A DNA stretch of 23,026 nt from Candidatus Eiseniibacteriota bacterium (GCA_031366795.1 JANLOX010000232.1:1-23026), one strand, 5' to 3'; positions 1,218 to 21,346 are shown, numbered from the stretch's first letter. Notes: generated by a model not told the origin, from the letters alone. Translations and numbers: made by a program.

Positions 1218-3245
1218 CTATTCCACCGAGAAGGTGACGCTCACCCCTCGCGGTGCCGCGGGCAGGAAACGCTGCTCGCCAAAGCCGCCGATGAACCCGG
1301 ACTCTGCGTAACGGCGGTCGAACAGGTTCTGGAGCCTGGCGCCCGCGTGGATGCGGCCAGTGTGCGCCTGCGCGCCTAGGTCCCACTCCGCGACGGCGCC
1401 AAGGCGCTGCGTCTCGCCCTTGTCGAGGAAGCGGCGGCCGATCAACCTGCTTCCCGCCTCCACCGACCACCACGGCTGCGGCGTCCAACTCAGCGAGGCA
1501 TTGCCAGTGCCCAGCGGCACGCCGTTGATTTGGCGGCCATCGTGGTCGCCGCCGTCGAACGTCGTCGGCGTATAGGCGCCGCCGAACCGGGCAGCCAGAT
1601 GGCCCTGCAACGGGCACGCGAGGCTCGCTTCGATGCCGCGGTGCCAGCTCTTCGAGATGTTCGCGTAGCTCAGCGTGTTGAGATCAAAGTCGATCTCATT
1701 GCGCACGCCCATCGAGTAGCCGGTCAACTGCGCGGTCCAGCCATCGCCACGATCCCAGCGTCCCCCCAATTCGAGATTCACCGCGGTCTGCGGATCGAGC
1801 TGGCCATTCGAGATCAATAGGGCACTCGGCCCGAAGAAGAATGGCCGCTGGTCGTATAGCTGGAACAGGGTCGGCACACGGAACGCCGTGCTCATGTTGC
1901 CATACGCGGTGCCATGCGTGCCCAACTGCAGCGTGAGACCCAGCAAGGGGCTGAATGCCGACAGCGTGCGCGTCTTTGTCCTGGTTCCGGCGATTACATC
2001 GGCGGAGTGCACCTGTGTGATGTCCCCGCGCACGCTGAGCCGGGCCACGGTACGCGAATCGAGTTCAAGGCGCGCGCCCAGCGTCGCGGCACCCATCGAA
2101 CGCGTGCTGCGGGTGCGGGCGAGCGCCGCGCCACGGCCCAGATCCGGGTCGAACGCTTCGTATTGAGATCGCAGGCTCGACTGCTCGCCCGTCGCTTCTC
2201 CCTGCCACACCACGCGGACGCCGCTAAGGTTCGAGTGCGCCCGCCATGCGAGCGAGGCGCCACCGGTGGTGCCGAGCGTGTGGTGGAACTGGGACTGGAA
2301 GAACAGGGTCTGGACCTGGTCGGCGTCCTCGTGGCTCACATAGGGCTTGAACGCCCACGCCGGCTCCGGCCCCGGGCTCGCCTGTACGCTCGCCCCGAGA
2401 CTGCCGCGGCGCGAGTGCTTGAAGTCGATGCGCGAATCCGCATTCGCTGGATTCGCGTCGAAGTCCTGCTGCGTCAGCGCCCCCGGATCCTGCCGGTTGG
2501 CGTCGAGCACGGTCATGTCGATCCGCCACTCGCGGCTACTCCGGCGCATCACGGCTTCGCCGCTGCCGCCATACACGCGTTCGCGGCTGTGCGTGCGCCA
2601 GCCGTCGACCTCACGCGCGAGCGCGCTCGCGCCGAAGCTCGCACCGCCCCAGGGCCCGCTGATCCCGGCATCTCCCCCGCGCAGCCCGAAGCTGCCCGCT
2701 CGCGCCTGCGCGCGTGTGACGAATTGGCCGGACACCGGCGTGCGCACGACATTGACGATGCCGCCTTCGCTCGCGTCGCCGTAGGCCCACGCACCGGGAC
2801 CCTGCACCACTTCGATGCGCTCGATCGCACCCGGAGCGATCCAGTCCCAATCCACGTTGCCGTTCTCGAGGTCGCGCACGTCGCGGCCATCGACGAGTAA
2901 TTTGAGATATGAGCTTTCCCCGCTGGCGGTGAAGCCCCGCGGGTCCACGATCGTGGCGTCCCCGCTCGAGGTCTCGCCGTAGGAGAACAACCCCGGCACC
3001 GTCTGCAGCAAGGTCGACAACCGCGTGGAGCCGGCGCGCCGGATATCGTCGCGGGACAGCACGAACGCTGCCGCAGGAATATCCTCGAGACGGTCCCGTC
3101 CCTTGAGCGCCGTGACTTCGACGCCTGGAATGGGAACCACCATCGTGTCCGCGGTAGCACCAGCCGCGGCGACCGTTCCCGGCACCGCACAGGGGCTCGC
3201 GGCCAGCAATCCCGCCATCACCCACATTCCTGCGACATGCTTCAC
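1218..3245 (-). CDS. TonB-dependent outer membrane receptor
   Basis: Signal peptide; plug motifs (LLQTVPG, RGF, LLVDG, IERIEVVQGPGAWAYG..GGIVNVV); barrel end NLFDRRY...PRGVSVTFSVE. GTG start at 3245 is preceded by AAAGGA (ORF track starts at 3272). Confidence 0.92.
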   Translation of the reverse strand: MKHVAGMWVMAGLLAASPCAVPGTVAAAGATADTMVVPIPGVEVTALKGRDRLEDIPAAAFVLSRDDIRRAGSTRLSTLLQTVPGLFSYGETSSGDATIVDPRGFTASGESSYLKLLVDGRDVRDLENGNVDWDWIAPGAIERIEVVQGPGAWAYGDASEGGIVNVVRTPVSGQFVTRAQARAGSFGLRGGDAGISGPWGGASFGASALAREVDGWRTHSRERVYGGSGEAVMRRSSREWRIDMTVLDANRQDPGALTQQDFDANPANADSRIDFKHSRRGSLGASVQASPGPEPAWAFKPYVSHEDADQVQTLFFQSQFHHTLGTTGGASLAWRAHSNLSGVRVVWQGEATGEQSSLRSQYEAFDPDLGRGAALARTRSTRSMGAATLGARLELDSRTVARLSVRGDITQVHSADVIAGTRTKTRTLSAFSPLLGLTLQLGTHGTAYGNMSTAFRVPTLFQLYDQRPFFFGPSALLISNGQLDPQTAVNLELGGRWDRGDGWTAQLTGYSMGVRNEIDFDLNTLSYANISKSWHRGIEASLACPLQGHLAARFGGAYTPTTFDGGDHDGRQINGVPLGTGNASLSWTPQPWWSVEAGSRLIGRRFLDKGETQRLGAVAEWDLGAQAHTGRIHAGARLQNLFDRRYAESGFIGGFGEQRFLPAAPRGVSVTFSVE

Positions 3246-3296
3246 GTGGAATCCTTTCGCAGCCGGCCGCACCCCGCTCGAGGGCGCAGCATTGGG

Positions 3297-3725
3297 CTAG
3301 GCCTCGAGCGCGGCGTCGAGTGTGATGTCGATGTGGCTGAGTAGGCGCGAAATCGGGCAGCCGGCCTTGGCGCCGTCCGCTGCCGCCTTGAACTGTTCCG
3401 CCGTGGCGCCGGGCACTTTGGCCTTCATTTCCAGATGGACGCCCGTCACCGACCAGCCGGCGTCCAGCTTCTCGAAGTTGAGCGTCGCCTTCGTGCGGAT
3501 CCAGTCCGCGGTCAGACCCGCGCCAGCCAACTGGCCCGCGAACGCCATCGAGAAACAGCCTGCATGGGCAGCCGCGATCAATTCTTCTGGATTCGTCTCG
3601 GTGCCGTCCGCGAAGCGCGAGCGGAACGAGTAGGCCTGGTTCGCGAGCGCGCCACTCTCCGATGAGACGGTGCCCGTGCCCTGCTGCAGTGTTCCTGTCC
3701 ATTCAGCCGATGCGTGACGCTTCAT
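3297..3725 (-). CDS. osmC: OsmC family peroxiredoxin
   Basis: TNPEELIAAAHAGCFSM and GCPIS supply the two catalytic Cys; 142 aa; GGAGG RBS. Confidence 0.95.
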   Translation of the reverse strand: MKRHASAEWTGTLQQGTGTVSSESGALANQAYSFRSRFADGTETNPEELIAAAHAGCFSMAFAGQLAGAGLTADWIRTKATLNFEKLDAGWSVTGVHLEMKAKVPGATAEQFKAAADGAKAGCPISRLLSHIDITLDAALEA

Positions 3726-3783
3726 GCGAATCCTCCATGGCGTTGGAATCCAGCGCCCATCGCGGGGTCGTGTGACGGTGATT

Positions 3784-5226
3784 TCAGAACGGAGCAGCCT
3801 GCTCCGTGGATGGCTCCGCTCAGCAGTACCACGGCTCGGTAAGGTAGGGAATCAGGGTGGCGTCGTGGTGCAGTCCACTGGGCTCCCGCACGGCTTCGGT
3901 CCATCCCTCGAAAACGCGTTGCCGGATCCGCTCGAACAGTTCCAGGCGCGTCAGCCCCGCGGCGGCACCCTGCTCGACCAGCCGGAACAGGTCCCGTTGC
4001 AGCGCGTCGATGGCGGGATCAGGATGCCGCCACGGATACACGAGCGCTTCCGCATCGAACGGCCCCACCTGTTCGCGGATCTCGGGCAGTTCGAGGAGGA
4101 GCGAACCGGCGGGAATCAGCAGCCGGATCGCCAGCTGGACAGGCGCCACGGCGGCCGCCAGCCCCTCGCTTTCCAGCGTTTCGAGCAGATCGCGCAGGGC
4201 AGCCCGGCTCGTCCACGGCGTGAACGGCATGAACGTCGGGCTGAGCGAAAGCCCATGGTCTCGAAACGCCGCGACGACCGCGAGGAAATCTGCGCGCGTG
4301 TGGCCCTTGTCGAGCCGGCTCAACACCGCGTCGTCCAGCGACTCGACGGCGCTGGTGACGAAGGCGCACCCGGTATCGCGCAAGGCCACGAGGTGTTGGC
4401 GATGCGCGAGCAGGTGCTCGATCTTGATCGTCACGTCGTAAGTGATGTGGGGATGCTCCTCGTGCAGCGCACGTACCAGCGGCAGCGCGTGCCCGATGCC
4501 ATTCCAGAAGTCGGGATCGCCGAACGTGATGTGCGTGGCGCCCGCCCGCACCTGGCGCCGCACATCCTCGAGCACTACGTCGCGCGGGACGATGCGGAAG
4601 CGGCCGTCATAAACGGGCACGATCGGGCAATGGCGGCAACGGTGCTTGCAGCCGCGGCTCGCCTCGGTCGCGCCCACCAGCCGCAGGGAACCGTCGCGAT
4701 CGCGCAGCTGGGCGTAGCGCTCGAGCCGCGGCAGCCCATCGCGATTCGGAGCGCGGAAGGCCAGGCGCTCGAACGATGTGACGACCCGCGCGGCGGAAGA
4801 CGTTTCGGCTTGGGATGCCGGCGCGTGGATGAAATCAGGTATTGAGCCCGCCACCCCGCGAGCCGCGAGTCCATTGACGAAATCCAGCAACTCCTGCTCG
4901 AACTCGCCACCCAGCACGGCCGTAGCACCCAGCCCCTGCAACATCGCGGCATTGACCGGCGCGTACAGGCCGAAGAAACACAGGGCCGCCGCGGGATTCA
5001 GCTTCCGCAGGCGAGGCAGATGGCGAACCGCGAGCCGCGTCGCCGTGTGCATCGGCAGGTGGAACGCGATGACATCCGTTCCCGCCGGCAGCGCATCGCC
5101 CTTGGACTCGACCGCGAGGTCGAGCAGCGTGACGTCGTGACCGGCCTGCCTCAGCCATGCTGCCGGTGAGGCCAGCCCAAACGGCTGGCGGCCGAGGTCA
5201 TACGTCGATACGAGAACGACGCGCAT
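3784..5226 (-). CDS. CUAEP-tail radical SAM selenoprotein (B12-binding-like N-terminal domain), 480 aa with Sec at residue 469
   Basis: SRGCKHRCRHC is the CxxxCxxC motif. The C-terminus reads tgg tac tgc TGA gcg gag cca tcc acg gag cag gct gct ccg ttc TGA = WYC-U-AEPSTEQAAPF*. In-frame TGA at 3820-3822, next stop at 3784-3786. Confidence 0.9.
3789..3807 (-). promoter_or_regulatory. Candidate bacterial SECIS element
   Basis: Perfect hairpin ACGGAGCA-GGC-TGCTCCGT (or a 7-bp stem with an AGGCT loop) starting 12 nt after the in-frame TGA, with G in the apical loop. Confidence 0.75.
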
Positions 5227-5234
5227 GGACAGGA

Positions 5235-5831
5235 CTAATCCCCGTAGGGAGAACGGCCCCCCTTGGAGGGACGGAAGTAGGGATTGCGGCCGTCGGCGTG
5301 GTCCGTGGTATCGACGACGCCCACGATCGAGGGCACCAACTCACGGATGCGCACTTCGATGCCCTGCTTGAGCGTGACATCCGCCATACCGCAGCCCTGG
5401 CAACCGCCTCCCAACTGGATGAAGGCCGTCGCATCGCGCACGTCGAGCAAGGTGATGACACCCCCGTGCGACGCCACGGCGGGGTTGATGTCGTCGTCGA
5501 TCACCTTCTGGACCGCGAGTGCCACCGGGTCGGCCCACAGGGGATTCGGGTTGTCGATCTTGAAGCCGCTCTGCCCCTCCTGCTCGACGAAGTCGATGGT
5601 GGCGCCGGCAAGGTTTGGGGCGCTCTGCGGGTCGACCAACACGACCAGTGCCCCGACCGTCACGACCACGTCGTCCGCGCCCTGTTCGGCGCGATCGGCG
5701 AACGCCAGCTGGTACAGGAACACACCCTGTCCGCGGCCCTTCACGCCGAATCGCAGCGCGAGTCCGTCCTTGCCTTGCGCCCTTATCATCTCGAGAATTT
5801 TGTCGCGGGCCACGTCGGTCACGGTGATCAT
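5235..5831 (-). CDS. nfuA: Fe-S biogenesis protein NfuA (degenerate A-type carrier domain plus NifU C-terminal domain)
   Basis: MITVTDVARDKI...GATIDFVE...GFKIDNPN then INPAVASHGG...GGGCQGCG (CxxC). ATG at 5831 with AGGAG RBS; the longer ORF-track start overlaps the upstream gene. Confidence 0.9.
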   Translation of the reverse strand: MITVTDVARDKILEMIRAQGKDGLALRFGVKGRGQGVFLYQLAFADRAEQGADDVVVTVGALVVLVDPQSAPNLAGATIDFVEQEGQSGFKIDNPNPLWADPVALAVQKVIDDDINPAVASHGGVITLLDVRDATAFIQLGGGCQGCGMADVTLKQGIEVRIRELVPSIVGVVDTTDHADGRNPYFRPSKGGRSPYGD

Positions 5832-5862
5832 GGTCACTCCTGGGGCTGATTGAATTCGGGCG

Positions 5863-7092
5863 TTACTCGGTATGGATTTCGAAACGCAACTGGCCGTGAG
5901 CCTTACGCAAGGCGGATTCTGCGTCTTCCGGAGACGCTCCGTGTGTGAACAGGAATCCGAGGTAGCGATGGCCCTCGGGCGGAGCCAGCACCGGATGCCC
6001 GATGGGAATGGTGATCCGGACCTCGTCCACACCGGGAACCGCCAAGGCTCCTTCGATGCCGTGCACACCGTGAAGGATCCCGGATTTAGGCACCGGGACC
6101 ATCATCACCCCGCGGGATTCGGTCTCCCGTTGCCAGTTCTCGACATCCTCGCCCACGGCATGTCGCAGCAGCAATTCCTCGAGCGTGTGCCCCTCACCGA
6201 AGCGCAACGCCCGCGAACATAGCCCTCCAATCGAGCGGGGCGCAATCTCCAGCGGCCAACAGCCCGCCGCATTCAAGCGCACTTCGGCGTGCACGGGGCC
6301 CTGCGTCAGCCCGAGTGAGGCAGCCATCGCCGCGACCTGTCGCGTCGCGGCCTCGAGCTGCCCGCGAGTGTGGCGGGACGGCGTGACGTAGATCGTTTCC
6401 TCGAACGCCGGACCCTCGAGGGGGTCAGGCTTGTCGAACACCGCCAGCACACGCAGTTCCCCGCGGGTGAGCAGGCCCTCAACGGCGATCTCGTCGCCGG
6501 GCACGTACTCCTCGACCAGTACTTCGGCGTCGCTCCCCTCGAGCCCCGCGTCCGCCATGACGTGCACCACGCGCTGGAACGCCGCGGCGAATTCCGCGGG
6601 GGAATTCGCGCGCAGCACACCCCGGCTCGCCGAGAGCGTCGGAGGCTTGAGCACACACGGGTAGTGCAACTGCGACGCGATGGTCCGGGGGTCGGTCGCT
6701 ACAGGCCAGATCTCGAACCACGGCGGAGGCACGCCCGCTTCGGCGAGCACAGCCCGCATCAACCGCTTGTCCCGCGCCTGCTCCACCGCGCGCAGCGGCG
6801 AGCCGGCGTGGCCCAACGCTTCGCCAATCGCAGCAGCGGCGCGCAGGCCATCGTCGTCGCAGGCGAGCACAGCAGTGAGCGGATAGCGCTCATGGAACGG
6901 GCGCGCCGCGAGCACTGCTGCGGCAACATTCACGAAATCGAGCGGCAACACCCCTTGCGGGTTTGCCATGGAGATCCAGGAATCGTGGTCACTCCCCACA
7001 ACAGCCATGAACCCGAGCCGCTGGGCGGCATCGAGGAACGCCTGCGCCTTGTAGGAGCGGGTGCCCATAACGAGAAGAACGCGCGTGTCCAT
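5863..7092 (-). CDS. ATP-grasp domain protein (L-amino acid ligase-like)
   Basis: ARDKRLMR, YPCVLKP..LSASRGV, VLVEEYVPGDEIAVEG, GPVHAEVRL, LEIAPRSIGG, plus a C-terminal LAL-type domain. Confidence 0.9.
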   Translation of the reverse strand: MDTRVLLVMGTRSYKAQAFLDAAQRLGFMAVVGSDHDSWISMANPQGVLPLDFVNVAAAVLAARPFHERYPLTAVLACDDDGLRAAAAIGEALGHAGSPLRAVEQARDKRLMRAVLAEAGVPPPWFEIWPVATDPRTIASQLHYPCVLKPPTLSASRGVLRANSPAEFAAAFQRVVHVMADAGLEGSDAEVLVEEYVPGDEIAVEGLLTRGELRVLAVFDKPDPLEGPAFEETIYVTPSRHTRGQLEAATRQVAAMAASLGLTQGPVHAEVRLNAAGCWPLEIAPRSIGGLCSRALRFGEGHTLEELLLRHAVGEDVENWQRETESRGVMMVPVPKSGILHGVHGIEGALAVPGVDEVRITIPIGHPVLAPPEGHRYLGFLFTHGASPEDAESALRKAHGQLRFEIHTE

Positions 7093-7107
7093 GCGGCAAG
7101 GTTACCA
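7093..7107 (-). promoter_or_regulatory. Extended -10 promoter, likely giving a leaderless mRNA for the ATP-grasp gene
   Basis: Minus strand reads TGG-TAACCT-TGCCGC-ATG; no Shine-Dalgarno; a terminator lies immediately upstream. Confidence 0.5.
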
Positions 7108-7111
7108 CGGC

Positions 7112-7158
7112 AAAAACGAACCGGTCGATCGCACCCGATTGCGGGGCGATCGGCCGGT
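7112..7158 (-). terminator. Intrinsic terminator after the repeat-protein gene
   Basis: Minus strand ACCGGCCGATCGC-CCCG-CAAT-CGGG-T-GCGATCGACCGGT followed by TCGTTTTT. Confidence 0.75.
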
Positions 7159-7179: not shown

Positions 7180-8970
7180 TCAGTGAACCAGGATCATCGT
7201 GCGGTAGGCGACCTTGCCACCGACCATGAGCCTCGCGAAGTAGGTGCCGCCCGCGACGTGGACGCCGCGGTCGTCGCGCGCATCCCAGGTCGCACTCTGC
7301 GCTCCGGCCTGAAGTTCCGAATCCACCACCGTGCGCACCAGCCGTCCCGCGAGATCGTGGATCCGCAGCGTGGCCCGTGATCGCAACGGCATATTGAAAC
7401 GCAGCGTCGTGGATTCGCGGAACGGATTGGGATACGCCGCCGCAAGACTCACACCGCCCGCGAGTGGCTGGCCGCCTACACCGAGTATGTGCGGGCAGAT
7501 GATTTCACCCACGGCCGTCCATGCGCCCGCGATACCCGGGTCGTAGGAGTCCAGAATCAGGTAGTAGATCCCGCGCGTCGTGAACTTGTAGCGGAAGTGC
7601 TCCATCTGCGCAGCACCCGAGGTATCGGATCCCGCGACGCAGGTTGTGGCGATGCTGTCGCAGTTCGTCACCAGGTAAATCGAAGCGTCGACATCATCCT
7701 TGCCGTTGACGTGCGGGAACACGTAGTCGCACCAGATGCTGTCCCCCGGTGATGCATCGATCCGGTATACGAGGTCAGCGCCCTGCGCCGAGAAACCGGT
7801 GCAGCCCGCTTCGGTCGGGTCGTAGTCCGGGAACGCCAGCGTGTTGTCGCCCGACAACTGGAACGGTCCGCACGGCAGGTACGCGGCCGAAGCGCACTGG
7901 TCGTTGGTCGGCACGTTGAGACCGCAGGTCAGCGAACCCACGAGGGACCAACCGCCATCCGTGTTGAGTCCGTCCGCGTCCAGAACGAGGAAGTACGAAC
8001 CGGTATAGAGGAACCGGAAGTTGAGCGTCTCGGTGCCGCCCGGGCCGGTGTTATTGGCGCCGACGAGGCAGTTCACCGGAGTGCCGCTCTTCTGGCAGTC
8101 GGGCATGATGTACAGGATGCCGTCCGCCGTCGAGGTGTAGGAGACCGACAGGCTGTCGCCCGCATTGACCTGCATGCTGTAGACGACGTCGCGGCCCTGC
8201 GCGAGCGAACCGACGCACGAGGTACTGACGCTCGGGAAGGCGTAATCATTCTGCGCGGTGACGGTGTTGCCGGAGAACAGGAAGCCGCCACAATAAATAC
8301 CCGTCGCGGTCTCACAGCGGTCGTTCACCGGCGGATGCAGGCCGCACGAGAAGAACTGGCCGACGAGCGACCAGTTGCCATAAGTGTCCTGTCCATAGGA
8401 ATCGAGAACCAGGTAATAGGTACCGGTGGTCGGGAAGCCATAACGCAAGTTCTCGGCGCCACCCTGGCGGTTCTCGTCGGCACCTGCCACGCAGCTCGTG
8501 GTCGGCTGCGCGCAATTCTTGATGATGTAGATCGAACCATCCGCGCTCGAGGTGTAGCGCAGCCACACGCTGTCCCCCGCTACAGCGTCGAACCGGTAGA
8601 CGACATCGCGGCCGGACGCCGAGTATCCGGTGCACGACAGCGTCGTATCCGGGAAGTCGTAATCGTTGGTGGCGAGGAAGGTGCTGCCGGCCAGGCTGAT
8701 GTTGCCACACGGAATGCTGATCGCACCGGCGCACTGATCATTGGCGGGCGGGTCGAGCGTCACGCCAAACGGATTGGAGAGCGGCGCCGGGACCGGCTTG
8801 AGGCGCAGCAGTTTGGGCGCACGAACGTGCGCGGTGGACCGCGTGGTTGCGGCCACGAGTTCCACGGGCGTCGTGACCGTGGATCGCGAAGCCGCGGCAC
8901 CTGCACCTGCCGCCAGGGCACACGCGAGCGAGACAATCCCCAACACAAGGCATCGAGAATGGAGCCGCAT
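7180..8970 (-). CDS. Secreted protein with three Cys-rich PPC-like beta-sandwich repeats and a C-terminal FlgD-Ig/T9SS-type domain (596 aa)
   Basis: Signal peptide MRLHSRCLVLGIVSLACALAAGAGA from ATG 8970; three repeats starting NDxC; tail YPNPFRESTTLRF...HDLAGRLVRT...WDARDDRG...GGTYFARL. Confidence 0.85.
   Translation of the reverse strand: MRLHSRCLVLGIVSLACALAAGAGAAASRSTVTTPVELVAATTRSTAHVRAPKLLRLKPVPAPLSNPFGVTLDPPANDQCAGAISIPCGNISLAGSTFLATNDYDFPDTTLSCTGYSASGRDVVYRFDAVAGDSVWLRYTSSADGSIYIIKNCAQPTTSCVAGADENRQGGAENLRYGFPTTGTYYLVLDSYGQDTYGNWSLVGQFFSCGLHPPVNDRCETATGIYCGGFLFSGNTVTAQNDYAFPSVSTSCVGSLAQGRDVVYSMQVNAGDSLSVSYTSTADGILYIMPDCQKSGTPVNCLVGANNTGPGGTETLNFRFLYTGSYFLVLDADGLNTDGGWSLVGSLTCGLNVPTNDQCASAAYLPCGPFQLSGDNTLAFPDYDPTEAGCTGFSAQGADLVYRIDASPGDSIWCDYVFPHVNGKDDVDASIYLVTNCDSIATTCVAGSDTSGAAQMEHFRYKFTTRGIYYLILDSYDPGIAGAWTAVGEIICPHILGVGGQPLAGGVSLAAAYPNPFRESTTLRFNMPLRSRATLRIHDLAGRLVRTVVDSELQAGAQSATWDARDDRGVHVAGGTYFARLMVGGKVAYRTMILVH
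7495..8751 (-). repeat. Three tandem ~140-aa protein repeats (starts near 8751, 8334, 7914)
   Basis: Each unit has NDxC..A..(I/L)xCG, (N/P)DY, CxGxxAxGxD(V/L)VY, GDS, D(G/A)x(I/L)Y, CxxG, G(T/S/I)Y(Y/F)L(V/I)LD, GxW(S/T)xVG and a terminal Cys. Confidence 0.9.
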
Positions 8971-9231
8971 GGGAGCAATCTCCGAGTTGAGCGTGGCGAG
9001 GCGGCAAGCGCGCTGCAAAAACCGCGACCCAAGGGATGGTCCGGCGGCCATTCGAGTGGTGGTATCGCGCGGGGATCGGGCCGGGGTTAGCCGATTTCGA
9101 ACCCACGATGTTGCTGGAAGCCTAAGCATGAGCCTATCACCCACCTGAGGCGTGCGCCACGGCTCCATTGCGACGGGGCGTGGTTTTCCCGTGAATTTTT
9201 CACTCCCAAGACGTCTGCTCCCCCAAGGGGC

Positions 9232-9247
9232 TGCAAGGGGTGCGCCA
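9232..9247 (-). promoter_or_regulatory. Candidate sigma54 (-24/-12) promoter
   Basis: Minus strand TGGCGC-ACCCC-TTGCA fits TGGCAC-N5-TTGC(A/T) with correct GG/GC spacing; intergenic and oriented toward the 8970 gene. Confidence 0.6.
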
Positions 9248-9352
9248 GCCGCCCCGGACGCGAAACCGCCGAAACCACCGCCGGGCACGCCGGGCAGGGA
9301 CGATCGGCGCGGCAATATGCCCCAGCAATAGCGCCGCCTGACCCGGCCCGGC

Positions 9353-10978
9353 CTATTGGTAGCGGGCTCGAACAGCCTGGGCAAACTCCTCAAGGTCATC
9401 GTAGCGATTCGCCCAGGTGGCATAGAGAATGGCCTCGACGTGCTTCACCCCACGGCTCGCCTCGATCCAGCGCTCGATCGACTGGACGGGCCCGTCGTAG
9501 TAGCCGGCGATAATCTGGGGATGCCCTTGCCGCGAGAAGAATTCGAGCGACTCATGGGGCCGCGTCTCGTTCCAGTTCACAACCCCGACACGGGCGTCGA
9601 GTCCGTTCGCGGCGCCCTCCAGGCTGCCCCGCACGAGGTAGAACTCGCGGATCGCATTTTGCCGCGGGTCGAACATGTCGCCCCATACGCAGAGCGTGTC
9701 CCCAGGCAGCATCGCGGCACAGCGGCGCACGGCATTCGCGAGAATGGTGCCCGCCGGCAGACCGGTGCGAATGCAGGCGGAGTCGCCACCGAGCGCGCGG
9801 ATTTCATCGAACATCATGAGGTACCGCCCCGTCCCCCACACCACCTGCATGCGCCGCGCCTCGTCCTCGAGCCGTGCCCAGGTGCCCGCTTCGGACAGGC
9901 AACACGTCGCCTGCGTCCCCCCCACGATCGCCGCATGCTGCCAGCTGCCGAGCAGCCGCGTGCCGTCGGGCCGCGACACGTGGAGCGGCGGCGGATCGTG
10001 CCACTCGGTGTACTGGCCTGCCCACGGATCGCGACCCATCCAAGGGTCGGCGAACGGCGCGAAGTCCACGCCCTCGACCAGCGGCGCTCCGGTCACCGCA
10101 TCGCGCAGCGCGAATGGGGCGTCGGCGCGGCGCACCATGTTCATGGGCCCCGCCTCTTCGATCGCCCAGTCCCGCCACTCGAGCAGGCCGCGCGTGCGGC
10201 TACGGACGCCGAAGGTGATTCGGACTTTGGAGTACTCGAGCGAGTTGAACATCACGTCGTAACGCGTCCACTCCTGGTTCGTCGTGAAGCGGACACTGTT
10301 CATGAAGTGCAGCCGCCGCTTGCCCGCAAACACCCACACGCGCGGACTCCCATGGAAGTCGCGCGTGCGCATCCACCACGACAGGTGGTAGGCGCTCGCC
10401 CGCTTCACCGGCACGTCGTACCACCAGCGCGCGCGCCACAGGCAGCGCTGCGTCGCCACGTGGTTCGAGTCGACGTCGACTCCCCAATCCTGCCCCGCGG
10501 GATTGGCGGGGAAGGCCACCGGCGTGGTGGAGTGCGGGCTGGCTATGCCACCGCGGACTTCGAATTCGGCGTTCTCCACCGGCAGCGACTCGACGAGATT
10601 CGGGTCACCCGCCAGCAGCGCGCCCGAGCGGCCCACCTGGAAGATGCCGGGCACGATCGACAGCCCCAATGAATCGGCGAGCTGCCGCAACCGTGCTGCG
10701 TGCTCGAAATACGCGGGGCGCATGTCGCCGAGACGCCCGAATTTGTGGTCCGCGAGCACCACGCGCCGGTAGCCGGCCTTAGCCGCGCGCGTCCACAGCG
10801 GCGCGATCCGCTCGACGCAATCGGACTCGGACAGGTTGGCGATCTGGTAGAACCAAAGCTCGGGAGGCGGGCCTGCCAGCGGCTCCTTGTGCCGCGCGCA
10901 CCCCGGCATCGCCGCCAACGTCAACGCGATGAGGGCCCACCGCCTCGCACCGCGACCCAGCCGGCTCCATCCCCGCAT
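9353..10978 (-). CDS. Putative lipoprotein with a glycoside hydrolase-like TIM barrel (GH20-like) and an inserted CBM-like jelly-roll
   Basis: Basic N-region, hydrophobic stretch and AMPGC lipobox-like Cys; YLMMFDEIR (DE pair) and VWGDMFDP; central YHLSWWMRT...QEWTRYDVMFNS segment resembles CBM4/9. ATG 10978 with GGAG RBS. Confidence 0.65.
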   Translation of the reverse strand: MRGWSRLGRGARRWALIALTLAAMPGCARHKEPLAGPPPELWFYQIANLSESDCVERIAPLWTRAAKAGYRRVVLADHKFGRLGDMRPAYFEHAARLRQLADSLGLSIVPGIFQVGRSGALLAGDPNLVESLPVENAEFEVRGGIASPHSTTPVAFPANPAGQDWGVDVDSNHVATQRCLWRARWWYDVPVKRASAYHLSWWMRTRDFHGSPRVWVFAGKRRLHFMNSVRFTTNQEWTRYDVMFNSLEYSKVRITFGVRSRTRGLLEWRDWAIEEAGPMNMVRRADAPFALRDAVTGAPLVEGVDFAPFADPWMGRDPWAGQYTEWHDPPPLHVSRPDGTRLLGSWQHAAIVGGTQATCCLSEAGTWARLEDEARRMQVVWGTGRYLMMFDEIRALGGDSACIRTGLPAGTILANAVRRCAAMLPGDTLCVWGDMFDPRQNAIREFYLVRGSLEGAANGLDARVGVVNWNETRPHESLEFFSRQGHPQIIAGYYDGPVQSIERWIEASRGVKHVEAILYATWANRYDDLEEFAQAVRARYQ

Positions 10979-11090
10979 CTGGTTTTCTCCCTTCAAGACG
11001 CGCCCCACCCGCTCCGGAGCGGGCCCATTTGAGCATCGCGCGCACGATAGGCAAATGCCGGGAGCGCGTCGAGTCGCCCGGGAATTCCAC

Positions 11091-11120
11091 TTGACGCATG
11101 AACCGAAATGCATTTTTATT
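11091..11120 (+). promoter_or_regulatory. Probable sigma70 promoter of the arg operon
   Basis: TTGACG at 11091-11096, 17-nt spacer, weak -10 (TTTTAT) lying inside the ARG box. Confidence 0.5.
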
Positions 11121-11124
11121 CATC
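11107..11124. promoter_or_regulatory. ARG box (ArgR operator)
   Basis: AATGCATTTTTATTCATC matches the nnTG(A/C)ATwwwwATTCAnn palindrome; an AT-rich island in GC-rich DNA directly upstream of argR. Confidence 0.85.
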
Positions 11125-11158
11125 TGACTGCATATCTTCTCGCACTAGGGAGGCCGTC

Positions 11159-11626
11159 GTGGCACGAGCCCGCCGTTTGACATTGATCGCCCAACTGCTG
11201 AGCAGCCGACGCTTCGCCAGCCAGGAAGAGGTCGGCAAGGCGCTGGCGCGCGCAGGGATCGAGACCACGCAGGCGACGCTGTCGCGTGACCTGCGCAGTC
11301 TTGGCGTGGCCAAGCGGGCCGATGCCGATGGCGGCAGCTGGTACGAGTTGCCGCATCCCGCCCTTGAAACGCTGGATCGCGAGCGCCGCCGGCTGGACCT
11401 GCGTTCCTTCGTCAATGAAGTCCGCGTGGCCCAGAATCTCGTGGTCGTGCGCACTCCCCCCGGGCATGCGAATGCCGTCGGGCGCGCCATCGACCTCGCG
11501 GAATATGAGGGTGTGGTGGGCACCGTAGCGGGCGACGACACCGTTCTGCTGGTCAGCGAGGATGCCGCCGGGGCGCGGCGCCTGAAGCGCGAACTCGAGT
11601 TACTCGCCAACGGCGGCACGAAGTGA
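11159..11626 (+). CDS. argR: Arginine repressor
   Basis: SQEE, TQATLSRDL, VRTPPGHA, GTVAGDDT; GTG 11159 after GGGAGG. Confidence 0.95.
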   Translation: MARARRLTLIAQLLSSRRFASQEEVGKALARAGIETTQATLSRDLRSLGVAKRADADGGSWYELPHPALETLDRERRRLDLRSFVNEVRVAQNLVVVRTPPGHANAVGRAIDLAEYEGVVGTVAGDDTVLLVSEDAAGARRLKRELELLANGGTK

Positions 11627-12702
11627 CGAGCCCGCTGAGCACGATACCCAAGCGCATGGCCACGCCGTCCGCGGCATCCCTGCCGGCGACTCGCGCGACT
11701 ATCGCGGTGCTTGGCGCCAGTGGCTACTCAGGCCAGGAGTTCGTCCGGCTGGCCTCGGCGCATCCTGGTCTCGACATCGCGCAGCTCGTCTCGCGCGAAT
11801 TCGCGGGGCAGCCCGCGGGAGCCATGCTGGTCGGCCTCGGCGCGCGCGTGGCGCCGCCCGTCGTGACGCCCGGTGCGGCGCTTGCCGCGGTGCGCGAGGG
11901 CGCTATCGACACGATCGTCGCCTGCCTGCCGCACGGCGCCTGGCGCGAGCTGTCGGCCCAGTTCTACGACGCTTCCCCGTCCCCCAAGGGATTGCGCGTG
12001 GTCGATCTGTCCTCCGATTTCCGCGACGAGTCGGCCGATTACCGCTATGGCCAGCCGGAGTCACGGCGGGAAGGGCTTGCGGGCGCCATGCGCATTGCCA
12101 ACCCGGGCTGCTACCCCACCGCTTCGACGCTGGCGTTGTGGCCGGCATTGGCGCGCAACCTGCTCACCGGTCCCATCATGGTGAGCGCCATCTCGGGCCT
12201 GACGGGAGCTGGGCGCACCGCCGCGGCACGCAATGCTTTCGTTGAGCGCGACGGCGGCGCCGAGCTCTACAAGGCCGGCACGATCCACGCGCACGCCAGC
12301 GAGATGGCGCGGCACTGGGCCGGCGCGCATGGCGCTGCACTTCCCGTCGGCTTCGCGCCGCAGGTGGTGCCGATGACGCGTGGCATTCTTGCCGTCATCA
12401 ACGCGACACTCCACGAGCCGCTGAGCCCCGAGCTGGCCCACGAACTGTGGTCGCAAACCTACGCCGACGAACCCTTCGTGCGCGTGCTCCCCGCCGGTCA
12501 GTGGCCCGACACGCGCGCGGTCAAGGGCTCCAACCGCTGCGACGTCGCAGTCACCACGCTGCATGACGGGCGCACACTGCTGGCCACATCGGCCATCGAC
12601 AACCTCGTCAAGGGTGCCGCGGGACAGGCGATCCAGAACCTCAACCTCATGCTCGGCTGGCCCGAGTCCACGGCGCTGCCCGTGGACGGCCTGCCCTGGT
12701 AA
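11623..12702 (+). CDS. argC: N-acetyl-gamma-glutamyl-phosphate reductase
   Basis: GASGYSG, DLSSDFR, IANPGCYPT, DNLVKGAAGQAIQNLN; GTGA overlap with argR (the start could instead be Met at 11656). Confidence 0.95.
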   Translation: MTSPLSTIPKRMATPSAASLPATRATIAVLGASGYSGQEFVRLASAHPGLDIAQLVSREFAGQPAGAMLVGLGARVAPPVVTPGAALAAVREGAIDTIVACLPHGAWRELSAQFYDASPSPKGLRVVDLSSDFRDESADYRYGQPESRREGLAGAMRIANPGCYPTASTLALWPALARNLLTGPIMVSAISGLTGAGRTAAARNAFVERDGGAELYKAGTIHAHASEMARHWAGAHGAALPVGFAPQVVPMTRGILAVINATLHEPLSPELAHELWSQTYADEPFVRVLPAGQWPDTRAVKGSNRCDVAVTTLHDGRTLLATSAIDNLVKGAAGQAIQNLNLMLGWPESTALPVDGLPW

Positions 12703-12728
12703 GCGGTCTCAAGGGAGCATCGCGACTC

Positions 12729-13562
12729 ATGACACAGCGCAATTCCATCGCGCCACCCAAGGCGGCGCCTTCGATTCCGGTCATCGTCATCAAACTCGGC
12801 GGCCGTGCCCTCGATGCGCCCGGCGCCGAAGCCGAGCTGGCGGATGCTCTCACTGCGCTCGAGGGCCACGCCGTGCTGGTGCACGGCGGTGGCAACGAAG
12901 TGACGGCGTGGTGCCAGCGACTCGGCCACACCCCGCAATTCCAGAACGGACTGCGCCTCACCGATGACACCACGCTCGAAGTCGCGGCCGCCGTCCTGGG
13001 GGGTCTCGCCAATGCGCGTCGCGTCGCGAGCCTGAGGGCTCACGGCGTCGATGCCCTTGGCTTGAGCGCGGGTGATGGCGGCCTGCTCGAAGTGCGGCTG
13101 CATCCCGATGCCGCCCAACTGGGCCATGTCGGCGTCGCCACCGGGGTTCGCCTCGAGTTGCTTGAGCAGTTGCTGGCACTCGGGCTGACGCCCGTCGTCT
13201 CGAGTATCGGCGCCTGCGATGGCGCGCTGCTCAATCTCAACGCCGATGAAGTCGCGGGCGCCCTGGCCTCAGGCCTCAAGGCACGCGCGCTGGTCATGCT
13301 CAGTGATGTCGATGGCGTGATGCTCGATGGCGCGCTGGTCTCGCGAATCAATGCGGCCGAACTGCCGCAATTGCTGCAACGCAGCGATATCCGCGACGGC
13401 ATGGTGCCTAAGCTGCGGGCCGCGGCACGCGCGCTCGAGGGCGGGGCGCAACGGGTATGCATCGCCGCATGGCGCGGCCCTGAAACACTCACGCAGATCA
13501 TGAACGGCACCCAGCCGGCCACCACGCTTTGCCGGGGCCATGAGGAGACCACGTATGCCTGA
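12729..13562 (+). CDS. argB: Acetylglutamate kinase
   Basis: VIKLGG, VHGGG, GLRLTD, NLNAD, SDVDGV, GMVPKL. Confidence 0.95.
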   Translation: MTQRNSIAPPKAAPSIPVIVIKLGGRALDAPGAEAELADALTALEGHAVLVHGGGNEVTAWCQRLGHTPQFQNGLRLTDDTTLEVAAAVLGGLANARRVASLRAHGVDALGLSAGDGGLLEVRLHPDAAQLGHVGVATGVRLELLEQLLALGLTPVVSSIGACDGALLNLNADEVAGALASGLKARALVMLSDVDGVMLDGALVSRINAAELPQLLQRSDIRDGMVPKLRAAARALEGGAQRVCIAAWRGPETLTQIMNGTQPATTLCRGHEETTYA

Positions 13563-14859
13563 CGCCACCACGCTCGACACGGCAGCCGTCGAAACTGCCG
13601 CAGTGACCCCGCCCAACGCCGCACCCGCCACGGGTCCTTCGCCGTTTGCGGACGACGAACTGGGACTCATCGCGCCCAATTACCCGCTGCCCCGGCTCGA
13701 GCTGGTCTCGGGACGTGGTGTGTGGGTCACCGACAAGAACGGCACGCGCTACCTCGACTTCGTCAGCGGTATCGCCGTGAATGCCCTGGGCCACGCGGCA
13801 CCCGCCGTGGCGCGCGCCGTGGCCAAGCAGGCGCGTGTGCTGGGGCAGGTCTCCAACCTGTTCGCCAACCGCCCCGCCACGACGCTCGCGCACCAACTCG
13901 CCGAGACGACGGGCTACCCAAACGTGTTCTTCTGCAACTCGGGCACCGAGGGCGTTGAAGCCGCGCTCAAGTTCGCGCGGGCCCGGGCGCGCCAGAAGGG
14001 ACTCAGCGGCCGCGATGTCGTCGCCTTCCGCGGGGGATTCCATGGCCGCACCGCCTTCGCGCTCTCGGCAACCTGGACGCCCTCCTATCGCGAGCCGTTC
14101 GAACCCTTGATGCCCGGCGTCCGCTTCGGTGACTTGAACCAGCTCGCTGGGCTCGACACGCTGATCGATGAGCACGTCGCGGCGGTAATCGTGGAACCCG
14201 TGCAGGGCGAAGCGGGCGCCATTCCTGCCACGCGCGAGTTCCTGCACGCCCTGCGCAAGCGCACCGAAGCCGTAGGCGCGGCATTGATCCTCGACGAGGT
14301 GCAGAGCGGCATGGGCCGCTGCGGCTCCCTGCTGGCGCAGCAGCAGTTCGGCGTCAGCGGCGACTACACGGTGCTGAGCAAAGCGCTCGGCGGCGGTCTA
14401 CCCCTGGGCGCCGTGCTGATGACCGCGGACGCCGCCAGTTCGCTCGCGCCCGGCATGCATGGCTGCACCTTCGGCGGCGGCGCCATCGCGGCCAGCGCTG
14501 GGATGGTGGTGCTCGAACGCGTGAGCAACGCGGGCTTCCAGACGCGCGTCCGCTCTCGCGGGCGCAGGCTGATGGCCGGGCTCAAGCGCGTCGTGAAGGC
14601 GCATGCCTCGGTCGCCGAAGCGCGCGGTCTCGGGCTGTTGCTGGCGATCGACCTCGCGCAGGATGCCGGCTTCGACGCCGCGACCCTCGTGCGCGCCGCG
14701 CGCGAGCACGGACTGCTGCTGGTGCGTGGTGGCGAGCGCGCCGTGCGGCTGTTGCCGGCCCTCATCGTCACCCCTGCCGAAATCGATCAGGCGCTCGAGC
14801 GCCTCGATGCGGCACTGACCTCACTCGAATCCAACACTCCCGCAAAGGACAACTCATAA
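13555..14859 (+). CDS. argD: Acetylornithine aminotransferase (class III PLP enzyme)
   Basis: YLDFVSGIAVNALGH, NSGTEGVEAA, FHGRT, EPVQGEAG, DEVQSGMGR, SKALGGG; ATG 13555 after GAGGAG. Confidence 0.93.
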   Translation: MPDATTLDTAAVETAAVTPPNAAPATGPSPFADDELGLIAPNYPLPRLELVSGRGVWVTDKNGTRYLDFVSGIAVNALGHAAPAVARAVAKQARVLGQVSNLFANRPATTLAHQLAETTGYPNVFFCNSGTEGVEAALKFARARARQKGLSGRDVVAFRGGFHGRTAFALSATWTPSYREPFEPLMPGVRFGDLNQLAGLDTLIDEHVAAVIVEPVQGEAGAIPATREFLHALRKRTEAVGAALILDEVQSGMGRCGSLLAQQQFGVSGDYTVLSKALGGGLPLGAVLMTADAASSLAPGMHGCTFGGGAIAASAGMVVLERVSNAGFQTRVRSRGRRLMAGLKRVVKAHASVAEARGLGLLLAIDLAQDAGFDAATLVRAAREHGLLLVRGGERAVRLLPALIVTPAEIDQALERLDAALTSLESNTPAKDNS

Positions 14860-16190
14860 TGACGCAGGCGACCCAGGTGAAGCGCGCAGTGCTTGCCTAC
14901 TCGGGCGGGCTCGACACCAGCATCATCGTGCACTGGCTCAAAGCCCGCTATGGCTGCGAAGTCATCTGCTACTGCTCCGACGTCGGCCAGGGCGCCGAAC
15001 TCGACGGTCTCGCCGAACGCGCGCGCCGGCTCGGTGCCGACGAGGTGGTCGTCGAAGACCTGCGCATGACGTTCGTGCGCGACTACTGTTTCCCCGCGCT
15101 CAAGTCCGGCGCGGTGTACGAAGGCCGCTACCTGCTCGGCACCTCGCTGGCGCGCCCGCTGATCGCCGCGCGGCAGGTTGCCGTGGCACTCGAGCACGGC
15201 GCCGATGCCGTAGCGCACGGCTGCACCGGCAAGGGCAACGACCAGGTCCGCTTCGAGCTCGCCTACATGTCGCTGGCGCCCGAACTCAAGGTGCTTGCCC
15301 CCTGGCGCGACCCGGCGTGGACGATCCGCTCACGCGAGGATGCGCTGGCCTATGCCGCCCAGCACAACCTACCCGTGCAGCAGACCTCGCGCGACCTCTA
15401 CTCGCGCGATGCCAACCTGTGGCACCTCTCGCATGAAGGCGGAGTGCTCGAAGACCCGGCGAACGCCCCGGAAGAGTCCATGTTCCGCCTGACTGCGGCC
15501 CCGGCATCGCACCCGGCCGAGCCCGAATGGGTCGCCATCGGGTTCGAGGCGGGACGCCCCGTCTCGCTCAATGGCACCGAACTGGATCCCGTGACGCTCG
15601 TCGGCGAACTCAACACGCGCGCCGAGAAGCATGGCGTGGGGCGCGCCGATCTCGTGGAGAGCCGGATGGTCGGCATGAAGTCGCGCGGCGTCTACGAGAC
15701 GCCGGCAGGCACCGTGCTCTATGAAGCGCTCGAAGACCTGTGCCGTCTCGTGCTGCCGCACGACCTGCATCGCACTCGGGCGACCCTCGCGCTGCAGATG
15801 GCGGACCTGATCTACTCGGGCCAGTGGTTCTCGCCGCTGCGCCGCGCCCTGCAGGCATTCGTCGACAACGCCATGCAGGTGGCCACCGGCACGGTCACGG
15901 TCCAGCTCCACCGCGGCACCGCCGTCGCCGTCTCGCGCACCAGCCCGATGTCGCTCTACAGCGCGAATCTCGCGTCATTCGACATGACCGGCTACAACGC
16001 CGCGCACGCCGAAGGCTTCATCCGCTTGTTCGGGTTGCCGCTGGCCGCTGCAAGCCAGCGTGGGTCACGCAAGGATGCCATGCTGGCCAGCCCCGGCGGT
16101 GGCGCCTACGCCCCCACGCCCGGCGCGGCGGATCCCAACGCCACCAAGGCAGCCCAGCCGGCGAAGTCCGAGGTCAGTCATGCAGGCTAA
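14859..16190 (+). CDS. argG: Argininosuccinate synthase
   Basis: LAYSGGLDTS, HGCTGKGNDQVRFE, SRDANLWHLSHEGG, KSRGVYETP; TAATG coupling to argD. Confidence 0.97.
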   Translation: MTQATQVKRAVLAYSGGLDTSIIVHWLKARYGCEVICYCSDVGQGAELDGLAERARRLGADEVVVEDLRMTFVRDYCFPALKSGAVYEGRYLLGTSLARPLIAARQVAVALEHGADAVAHGCTGKGNDQVRFELAYMSLAPELKVLAPWRDPAWTIRSREDALAYAAQHNLPVQQTSRDLYSRDANLWHLSHEGGVLEDPANAPEESMFRLTAAPASHPAEPEWVAIGFEAGRPVSLNGTELDPVTLVGELNTRAEKHGVGRADLVESRMVGMKSRGVYETPAGTVLYEALEDLCRLVLPHDLHRTRATLALQMADLIYSGQWFSPLRRALQAFVDNAMQVATGTVTVQLHRGTAVAVSRTSPMSLYSANLASFDMTGYNAAHAEGFIRLFGLPLAAASQRGSRKDAMLASPGGGAYAPTPGAADPNATKAAQPAKSEVSHAG

Positions 16191-18177: not shown

Positions 18178-18245
18178 ACCCGCGCTCGAACCGGCATGGC
18201 GCCGGTCCCGCCGCGGACCTTGAAGCAGGAAGGAGCAACACCACG

Positions 18246-19223
18246 ATGAACGAACACCCCGCGCACTTGATCAACCTGCTCGGATTGGACGCCGACTGGG
18301 CGCTCGACCTGTTCAAGCGCGCCGATGTGCTTCGCGCAACGCGCGGCACGGCCAAGGCGCCGCGCCCGTTCGTGGGGCGCACGGCGGCGCTGGTGTTCCA
18401 CAAACCCTCGCTACGTACGCGCGTGTCGTTCACCGTCGGCATGCACGAACTCGGCGGCGATGCCGTCGACCTCTCCGCCGTCGAGGTGTCCGAACACGGC
18501 CGCGAGAGCATCCCGGACGTCGCCCACGTGCTCTCAGGCATGTGCTCGATGGTGGTGATGCGCACGTTCTCGCACTCGCTGGTCACCACCTTCGCCCAGC
18601 ACTCAAAAGTCCCCGTGATCAACGCCCTCACCGACTTCTCGCACCCCTGCCAGATCCTGTCGGACCTCTACACGCTCAAGCGCCGCGGCTTCGACCTCAA
18701 CAACATGACCGTCGCCTGGGTCGGCGACGGCAACAACGTCCTGCATTCCTGGCTGGAAGCCGCTACAATGTTCGGCTTCACGCTGAACATCGCGGTACCG
18801 GACGGCTTCGAGCCGGATGGCGGCCTGTACTTGGAGGCAGAGCGTCGAGCACTCGGGCGGATCAACCGCATGCGCGACCCGAACGAGGCGGTCCGAGGCG
18901 CAGATGTCGTCTACGGCGACACGTGGACCAGCATGGGTCACGAAGACGAAGCCGAATGGCGCCGCATCGCGTTCGCGGGCTACCAGGTGAATGACGCATT
19001 GATGGCCCTAACGGCTCCGGGGGCAGTGTTCATGCACTGCCTACCCGCGCACCGTGGCGAGGAAGTCACGGACGCGGTGCTCGATGGCCCGCAGTCAATC
19101 GTCGTCGAGCAGGCCGAAAACCGCCTCCACCTGCAGAAGGGCCTCATGGTGAAGTTGATGGAGGCGTCCGAGTCGCCGAAGCGAAACCTGCAGAACGCCG
19201 TCCGCGAGGCCCTGGCGCTGTAA
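18246..19223 (+). CDS. argF: Ornithine carbamoyltransferase
   Basis: KPSLRTRVSF, HPCQILSD, GDGNNV, DTWTSMG, MHCLPAHRGEEV, QAENRLH; ATG 18246 after AAGGAG. Confidence 0.95.
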   Translation: MNEHPAHLINLLGLDADWALDLFKRADVLRATRGTAKAPRPFVGRTAALVFHKPSLRTRVSFTVGMHELGGDAVDLSAVEVSEHGRESIPDVAHVLSGMCSMVVMRTFSHSLVTTFAQHSKVPVINALTDFSHPCQILSDLYTLKRRGFDLNNMTVAWVGDGNNVLHSWLEAATMFGFTLNIAVPDGFEPDGGLYLEAERRALGRINRMRDPNEAVRGADVVYGDTWTSMGHEDEAEWRRIAFAGYQVNDALMALTAPGAVFMHCLPAHRGEEVTDAVLDGPQSIVVEQAENRLHLQKGLMVKLMEASESPKRNLQNAVREALAL

Positions 19224-20786: not shown

Positions 20787-21346
20787 CGCGGGTTGGTCTT
20801 CTGCTGGTAGCGGATGTAGTTGATCAGGTCGTAGGCCTCGTGGGCGGTCACCAGCGCGCCGTAGTTCGGCATCACCGCGCCACCGTGGCGAATGTATCCG
20901 TAGATGTAGCCATCGCTGCGTCCCCGGGTCATGGCGGCCAGCAGGTCGGGCGGCGGAATGTACTTGGCCGCGACCGGGCCATCACCCTTCATCGAGACGC
21001 CGTGGCACGGCACGCAGGTGCGCATGAACTTGCGCGCTCCCCGCGCGATCGAAGAATCATCGGCGGCCTGCGGATTCGTGAAGGTCTTGTCGAGCCGCGC
21101 GCGCTCGGAGGCTTCCATACCCGGCGCGGTGTTCCACAGTTCGCGGCCACCGACGGGAACACTCACCGAATCCGGGGCCTTGAGGTAGGTCTGCTGCGGA
21201 ACGAGCACGACGCTCGTGCGCATGTCGCGCGTCTTGTAGTACGGCAGGTGCGTAAGCGAGCTCTTGAGGTCACGGCAGCCGCGCTCGAACACCGTGCCGC
21301 CCAGCATCGCGACGAAGCCCATCACCAGCAGGATGCTCTTAACCAT
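20783..21346 (-). CDS. actE: Alternative complex III monoheme cytochrome c ActE
   Basis: Single CVPCH heme motif, distal Met (VMPNYG), N-terminal hydrophobic anchor, position between actD and actF. Confidence 0.85.
   Translation of the reverse strand: MVKSILLVMGFVAMLGGTVFERGCRDLKSSLTHLPYYKTRDMRTSVVLVPQQTYLKAPDSVSVPVGGRELWNTAPGMEASERARLDKTFTNPQAADDSSIARGARKFMRTCVPCHGVSMKGDGPVAAKYIPPPDLLAAMTRGRSDGYIYGYIRHGGAVMPNYGALVTAHEAYDLINYIRYQQKTNPR

Follow-up and report, generated by a model that had tools for sequence, protein, structure and literature searches.

A selenocysteine radical SAM enzyme and an L-amino-acid-ligase-type ATP-grasp enzyme form a widespread uncharacterised module with an iron-sulfur helper

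The window analysed here, a 23,026-nt stretch of Candidatus Eiseniibacteriota DNA on whose full length all positions are counted, contains five co-oriented open reading frames (ORFs) on the minus strand, encoding an ATP-grasp ligase, an NfuA-type iron-sulfur (Fe-S) carrier, a radical S-adenosylmethionine (SAM) enzyme, an OsmC peroxiredoxin, and a TonB-dependent receptor. Two of these genes, encoding the 409-aa ligase (5863-7092) and the 480-aa radical SAM enzyme (3784-5226), are co-inherited in many bacterial phyla, in most cases next to a gene for an Fe-S helper. They are the core of a module that is widespread and uncharacterised, comprises two enzymes plus an Fe-S helper, and lies inside a looser local operon; the two enzymes very probably work as a functional unit. 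The pair likely makes an undescribed amino acid and caps it as a dipeptide. No description of the pair was found in the literature searched, which mostly did not cover subscription journals.

An earlier note on this DNA, made from the sequence alone, had let its proposal depend on the ligase and radical SAM genes occurring together in other genomes, and they do. The radical SAM enzyme scores above its family cut-off in 18 of 61 related genomes; a ligase orthologue (at least 47% identity) is present in 16 of these 18 and in none of the 43 negative relatives. In the two radical-SAM-positive relatives without a ligase the locus stops at a contig edge, one of them with an N-terminal ligase fragment. 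One relative (G033) has lost both enzymes from either side of nfuA while keeping nfuA, osmC, and both flanks. These relatives are not independent, being kin, and most of the genomes are incomplete. A sample of 151 Acidobacteriota, including the seed genome, was reduced to 150 by dropping one unpublished ligase-only genome; 24 encode both enzymes, one the radical SAM enzyme alone, four the ligase alone, and 121 neither. Where no ligase clearly adjoins the radical SAM gene (33 genomes), 24 carry one elsewhere, one has a contig-end fragment, and eight have no ligase. Across 53 pairs, 21 of the 27 supported splits in the radical SAM tree are also found in the ligase tree, a result that shared descent alone could give.

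The neighbourhood of the radical SAM gene was compared over 96 loci, made up of the window, 17 relatives, and, after removal of two duplicates, 78 of the 80 best among at least 447 confirmed loci. Fe-S helpers as a class belong to the module as its recurrent third member. NfuA/Nfu or an A-type carrier is encoded in 29 of the 96 loci and YggX in 41, and 58 of the 60 loci whose ligase gene adjoins the radical SAM gene have one of the three; where the pair is split, helpers remain with either the ligase or the radical SAM gene. The window's own nfuA (5235-5831, minus strand) encodes a degenerate, Cys-free A-type domain followed by an Nfu domain with its CxxC motif. It is the only full-length copy in the genome and differs from NfuA proper (TIGR03341 / NF008392) in scoring 120 against a proteobacterial cut-off of 269, and in being a general single-copy gene of the lineage that is present also without the pair: 13 relatives lacking both enzymes have a full-length nfuA, adjoined in five of them by osmC. 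A dedicated subunit role for nfuA is ruled out by its survival of pair loss in these 13 relatives and in G033. The earlier note's inclusion of NfuA is supported for Fe-S helpers as a recurrent class and unsupported for nfuA as a dedicated gene. In three Acidobacteriota loci (L178, L180, L181) the ligase gene is convergent on nfuA, and no radical SAM enzyme of the window's family was found in these genomes.

The radical SAM enzyme carries a CxxxCxxC motif (C193/C197/C200) and scores 597.7 bits against NF040546, the CUAEP/CCAEP family (cut-off 500), or 610.7 bits with read-through of an in-frame UGA. Its tail reads PWYC-U-AEP, with the third tail cysteine absent. By score, tail, and a hairpin resembling a selenocysteine insertion sequence (SECIS) it matches NF040546, with no difference at family level. 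The family is large, with at least 8000 scored candidates past 1e-30, which may include ArsL-type matches. In Haft and Gwadz (bioRxiv 10.1101/2022.07.06.499078), the family is named as uncharacterised and the CU motif is considered rare and suggestive of heavy-metal contact; the literature found by full-text search for CUAEP assigns it no function.

Judged from sequence, the UGA at 3820-3822 is very likely recoded as selenocysteine, giving a vicinal Cys468-Sec469 pair, because TGA alternates with Cys codons at this position, the downstream stem is paired, and the genome has both sel genes and a tRNA-Sec. Of the 96 codons that follow the tail cysteine, 79 are TGA, 12 encode Cys, and five are unresolved, and behind them AEP, SEP, or TEP is conserved. 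A SECIS-like stem-loop at +15 to +29 past the UGA (3791-3805, minus strand) shows 94% pairing across 75 distinct TGA sequences versus 57% in 12 Cys sequences; a slid-partner control gave 44-52%, and the TGA loci show several base-pair types per column. The window's genome encodes selA, selB, and selD together with a 98-nt tRNA-Sec. Presence of selA is ruled out as the reason for the patchy distribution of the pair, since 57 of the 61 genomes have it. The Thermomicrobium roseum member (L146:7935-9371) has an annotated end of WFC followed by a stop and no ligase nearby; it is probably a truncated selenocysteine call.

By sequence comparison, the CUAEP family is the sister of ArsL. The kinship that the earlier note had drawn was borne out by a quick tree in which CUAEP and ArsL form sister groups in a clade with a support of 100. 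The window enzyme scores 279.1 bits against the ArsL family NF040542, below the cut-off of 450; it has an ArsL-like N-terminal domain and is 32-34% identical over approximately 420 aa to three proteins with the RCCLKC three-cysteine arsenic site, which are identical to one another and to CUAEP at 53 of 104 near-invariant CUAEP columns. Both families share a two-domain layout, the CxxxCxxC motif, and a C-terminus with vicinal Cys-Cys or Cys-Sec. Unlike ArsL, the window enzyme lacks the RCCLKC site, offers two thiol/selenol ligands in its tail rather than three, has selenocysteine in place of cysteine, and is predicted from its model to have a helical insertion of approximately 45 residues before the tail. 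That model has a predicted local distance difference test (pLDDT) score of 91, and its best solved fold is AprD4 (template modelling (TM) score 0.67); the AprD4 family profile scores 32 bits on the enzyme, versus 279 for the ArsL profile. Neither sequence nor fold searches recovered an ArsL structure.

Two preprints report that ArsL cleaves SAM to methylthioadenosine (MTA) and a 3-amino-3-carboxypropyl (ACP) species and that the three cysteines of its tail hold arsenite (bioRxiv 10.1101/2024.02.01.577332; bioRxiv 10.64898/2026.04.29.721666). Single Cys-to-Ala changes in the tail are reported in the latter to lose activity, and phosphorus analogues are not used (bioRxiv 10.1101/2024.02.01.577332). 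According to section 5.1 of a review (PMC13598754), methylated arsenic is a substrate of ArsL, and methylarsenate is turned over best by an 'MCCA' mutant; we infer that 'MCCA' denotes Cys-Cys-Ala, a two-ligand tail. By score, tail, and context the window enzyme is not an ArsL, but it likely works like one, and ACP-type chemistry is its probable activity.

The ligase contains the Pfam domains ATPgrasp_N, ATP-grasp_4, and LAL_C2. Its profile scores 238 bits to BL00235 (PDB 3VOT) versus 117 to BacD, and its model (pLDDT 93) superposes on 3VOT with a TM score of 0.82. With BL00235, BacD, RizA, and DdaF it shares the three-domain L-amino-acid ligase architecture, the motifs GPxFEExxYxxP and GPxHxE, and a small residue in place of the Asn found in the ExNxR of many ATP-grasp enzymes. 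It differs from these enzymes in being only approximately 24% identical and in scoring below the cut-offs of every named equivalog. Domains and predicted fold therefore place it in the L-amino-acid ligase type, as the earlier note had supposed in assigning it amide-bond formation, and it is predicted to synthesise dipeptides from free amino acids. BL00235 itself makes Met-Gly and Met-Met (PMC6920838).

ArsL clusters carry a ligase of their own. In Priestia, Pantoea, and Alicyclobacillus, each cluster encoding an RCCLKC protein has an L-amino-acid-ligase-type gene among its ars genes. These plasmid clusters (L147:2635-3858, L148:7461-8777, L149:2436-3668) also encode a small CMD-like protein ending in Cys-Cys, together with arsM, MFS, aquaporin, GTPase, or arsN1 genes. 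The ArsL-cluster ligase matches 35 plasmid records, many of them near-copies, with a genus tally equal to that of 35 of the 36 non-Thermomicrobium radical SAM matches. Orthology with the window ligase is unsupported at 19-24% identity. Because the two ligases belong to different clades, the association of ArsL-type enzymes with such ligases either arose more than once or is very old, and because the RCCLKC clusters carry their own ligase, arsinothricin dipeptides are predicted. Nothing relevant linking arsinothricin to ATP-grasp enzymes was found in literature that mostly did not extend to subscription journals, and the word 'ligase' is absent from the passages of PMC8552651 examined. Within the same coverage, no publication combining selenocysteine, radical SAM, ATP-grasp, and arsenic was found.

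The remaining two genes of the row, osmC (3297-3725; TIGR03562 above cut-off) and the TonB-dependent receptor (1218-3245, with an alternative start at 3272), both on the minus strand, are local neighbours only and lie outside the pathway. Within 5 kb of the radical SAM gene, osmC is found in eight of the 96 loci and the receptor in six, nearly all from this lineage; among the 78 loci outside it, osmC flanks one and the receptor none. A receptor orthologue is present in seven of the 18 radical-SAM-positive relatives and in four of the 43 negative ones, and elsewhere the gene follows what reads from sequence as an OsmF-type ABC transporter or MqnE-like gene. Since the distributions of nfuA, osmC, and the receptor gene differ from that of the pair, the row is best described as a lineage-specific nfuA-osmC backbone carrying the pair. 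The earlier note had treated all five genes as one dedicated pathway. A version in which the receptor imports the substrate and OsmC keeps the tail reduced could appeal to the gene order, which is kept in two genomes of the same genus, and to the short gaps and bounding hairpins, which make a single transcript plausible. We consider it highly improbable: osmC and the receptor gene are nearly absent outside the lineage, each is also found in relatives that lack it, nfuA persists in 13 pair-less relatives, and the receptor has other partners elsewhere. These distributions largely refute a dedicated five-gene pathway.

The ORFs and intergenic gaps described in the earlier note were recovered unchanged: 31 nt between the ligase gene and nfuA and 8 nt between nfuA and the radical SAM gene, as computed directly; 58 nt between the radical SAM gene and osmC, given TGA read-through to the stop at 3784-3786; and 51 nt between osmC and the receptor gene, if the latter starts at the GTG at 3245. 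A terminator-like hairpin with a U-rich tail (7121-7158, minus strand; z -2.75) closes the upstream gene, and a second hairpin (1117-1157), likely a bidirectional terminator, lies between convergent genes and folds on both strands (z -5.74 and -4.25). Both bounding hairpins proposed earlier therefore fold, but neither was called in a strict consensus scan. Similarly, a strict consensus scan found no sigma-70 promoter, but the row does have a candidate promoter of its own in an extended -10 element, TGG-TAACCT (7099-7107, minus strand), whose TAACCT hexamer (7099-7104) lies 6 nt upstream of the ligase ATG and has similar counterparts in G001, G002, and G028. The ligase transcript is predicted to be leaderless. 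Across the 70 loci in which neither nfuA nor the ligase gene precedes the radical SAM gene, a leaderless-type -10 hexamer stands before the radical SAM start in 30, compared with 31 of 1610 background positions; the 30 of 70 is slightly inflated by the several in-frame starts allowed per locus.

We tentatively propose a mechanism that we regard as quite possible, though short of probable, in which the module scavenges methylarsenite constitutively. NfuA, or elsewhere YggX or an A-type carrier, would keep the [4Fe-4S] cluster loaded. SAM would then be cut at its C-gamma-S bond, as in ArsL, yielding MTA and an Fe-bound ACP group. The vicinal Cys468-Sec469, approximately 45 residues further out than the ArsL motif, would bind and deliver CH3-As(III), whose two exchangeable positions match a two-ligand tail; methylarsenite binds two thiols. 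This would yield trivalent arsinothricin without requiring a linked arsM. Finally, the ligase would activate the product's carboxylate with ATP and couple it to a second amino acid. The leaderless promoter looks unregulated, and ars regulators and exporters are lacking, which points towards constitutive scavenging and away from an inducible antibiotic cluster. By analogy, the proposal may draw support from the ligase's nearest match being the Met-activating BL00235. Methionine is ACP-S-CH3 and arsinothricin ACP-As-CH3, so the two share the ACP skeleton. Further analogies that may favour it are the separate-clade ligase of genuine ArsL clusters and, as described in the review section cited above, the 'MCCA' mutant acting on methylated arsenic. 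Its weak step is the identity of the acceptor; both the metalloid binding and the ACP chemistry are ones we infer. Methylarsenite is plausibly available, since arsM is above cut-off in 53 of the 61 relatives, although this near-universality makes arsM in trans uninformative as evidence.

Several observations weigh against the methylarsenite proposal. Coupling of the two enzymes is imperfect: the eight of 33 genomes with the radical SAM enzyme and no ligase include a single-chromosome genome (G063), and of the four Acidobacteriota with a ligase and no radical SAM enzyme, three have the ligase next to nfuA. At 51 of the 104 near-invariant CUAEP positions, including H60, H199, K268, and H309, the family differs from ArsL. 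Family scans detected no ars genes in the window, in agreement with the earlier note, and although the genome encodes arsR-acr3-arsC-like genes and an ArsM-like gene elsewhere, it has no arsM above cut-off; the distribution of arsM among relatives does not track the pair. Ars-type neighbours occur in two of the 96 loci (one ArsR-like, one acr3), and arsM, aquaporin, and arsN1 neighbours in none (arsQ was not among the probes). This near-absence counts against a regulated arsenic cluster. All three ArsL clusters examined sit among ars genes, unlike the CUAEP loci; in contrast to arsQML clusters, arsM, arsQ, arsR, and arsN are not linked to the pair, and Fe-S helpers take their place. Those helpers are the strongest neighbourhood signal (58 of 60 loci) and are not demanded by arsenic chemistry. 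Nor can the substrate specificity of the ligase be read from 24% identity.

The helper signal favours the main rival, in which the acceptor on the tail would be sulfur or selenium, as persulfide, selenide, or methylselenol. ACP transfer would then give a homocysteine-, selenohomocysteine-, or selenomethionine-type amino acid, and the resulting thiol or selenol dipeptide would take part, alongside NfuA or YggX, in the homeostasis of iron and Fe-S clusters. Recruitment of three unrelated Fe-S helpers (29 and 41 of the 96 loci; 58 of the 60 paired loci), their persistence beside the ligase when the radical SAM gene is elsewhere or absent, the near-absence of ars genes, and the leaderless, unregulated-looking promoters all speak for this, and the Met products of BL00235 (PMC6920838) suit sulfur and selenium analogues as well as arsenic. 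We nevertheless judge it somewhat unlikely. Helpers also remain with the radical SAM gene after the pair has split, as plain cluster support predicts; neither selD nor a sulfur-transfer family is among the 70 largest neighbour clusters, as judged from their sequences without a family scan; and ArsL does not use phosphorus analogues, sulfur and selenium acceptors not being reported there (bioRxiv 10.1101/2024.02.01.577332). In Salmonella, yggX is reportedly linked to gshA. Matches to gshB and GCS2 are lacking in the window's genome, but the pair as a glutathione or bacillithiol replacement was rejected: bshC-like genes occur in 52 of the 61 relatives, among them 16 of the 18 pair-bearing ones, so the pair is no substitute for the main thiol. 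A bolder form, in which the selenocysteine radical SAM enzyme would forge a C-Se (or C-S) bond and the dipeptide would act together with YggX and NfuA as a ligand for iron or Fe-S trafficking, across thousands of bacteria from soil, freshwater, and the sea, is doubtful.

Two further alternatives depart from these acceptors. The enzyme might be a canonical 5'-deoxyadenosyl radical SAM protein acting on an amino acid or on the ligase's dipeptide, the Cys-Sec tail being a redox arm or radical quencher with no metalloid involved. AprD4 as best solved fold, the divergence from ArsL at about half of the near-invariant positions, and the occurrence in four loci of ligase-less Cys-Cys members behind a linalool-dehydratase-like gene, pointing to other uses, would agree with this. 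It is unlikely, since ArsL is far closer than AprD4 by profile (279 versus 32 bits) and by tree, and both families end in the vicinal Cys-Cys/Sec motif that in ArsL is the substrate site. Alternatively, the ACP group might be transferred for detoxification to another soft element held on the Cys-Sec pair, such as inorganic As(III), Sb, Te, or Hg. The heavy-metal suggestion made for the rare CU motif in bioRxiv 10.1101/2022.07.06.499078 favours this, as does an extra paralog (L071) adjoining an ArsR-like gene, an AhpD/CMD-like gene, and a second ligase. However, in ArsL all three tail cysteines bind inorganic arsenite, single Cys-to-Ala changes being reported as inactive in bioRxiv 10.64898/2026.04.29.721666, and metal-resistance probes, all of ars type, were positive in just two of the 96 loci; we consider this alternative improbable.

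Several other features of these loci were recorded. The L071 cluster (8001-14305), which is possibly metalloid-regulated, encodes the second CUAEP paralog, the ArsR-like regulator, the CMD/AhpD-like protein, a pyridoxal phosphate-dependent decarboxylase, a ligase-GNAT fusion, and a DUF169 protein. A DUF169 gene adjoins the radical SAM gene in a minority of loci (L049, L053, L056, L058, L059, L061, L071, L182). In four Pseudomonadota loci (L100, L104, L111, L128), the linalool dehydratase/isomerase-like gene lies directly upstream of the ligase-less Cys-Cys radical SAM gene. A peptide transporter that reads from sequence as POT-type stands beside the pair, in either orientation, in 16 acidobacterial loci, upstream of the radical SAM gene in L089 for example; no POT match was found in the window's genome. 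An ArsM-like methyltransferase gene (L201:156-1022; G000:C181, minus strand) lies behind an ArsR-rhodanese-like gene and has an in-frame TGA where its family has Cys; its best match is ArsM_AhpD_UU, under cut-off, and similar TGA-bearing copies occur in several relatives. Within the window, secreted proteins with FlgD-Ig/T9SS-type C-terminal domains (29-1096 and 7180-9423) flank the operon. They are followed by a 586-aa ORF (9353-11113) with no Pfam or NCBIfam match, similar ORFs lying upstream of the ligase gene or nfuA in several relatives; by an arginine operon, argR-argC-argB-argD-argG-argH-argF, with argH fused to a GNAT acetyltransferase (11108-19223); and by alternative complex III genes (NrfD-type, ActD, cytochrome c) on the minus strand (19503-23011).

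Among the CxxxCxxC radical SAM enzymes in the literature consulted, only ArsL is described as making an ACP radical, and its sister family is large (at least 8000 candidates) and without an assigned function. Because the unit is now pinned to two enzymes and an Fe-S helper, it is testable with two purified proteins. If the acceptor is methylarsenite, arsinothricin-type compounds would be far more widespread than the distribution of arsQML suggests, and the module would be a new methylarsenite sink in soils and waters. If it is sulfur or selenium, the product would be a new redox metabolite; and should a C-Se bond be formed, the family would provide a new route to such bonds and a new class of redox metabolites.

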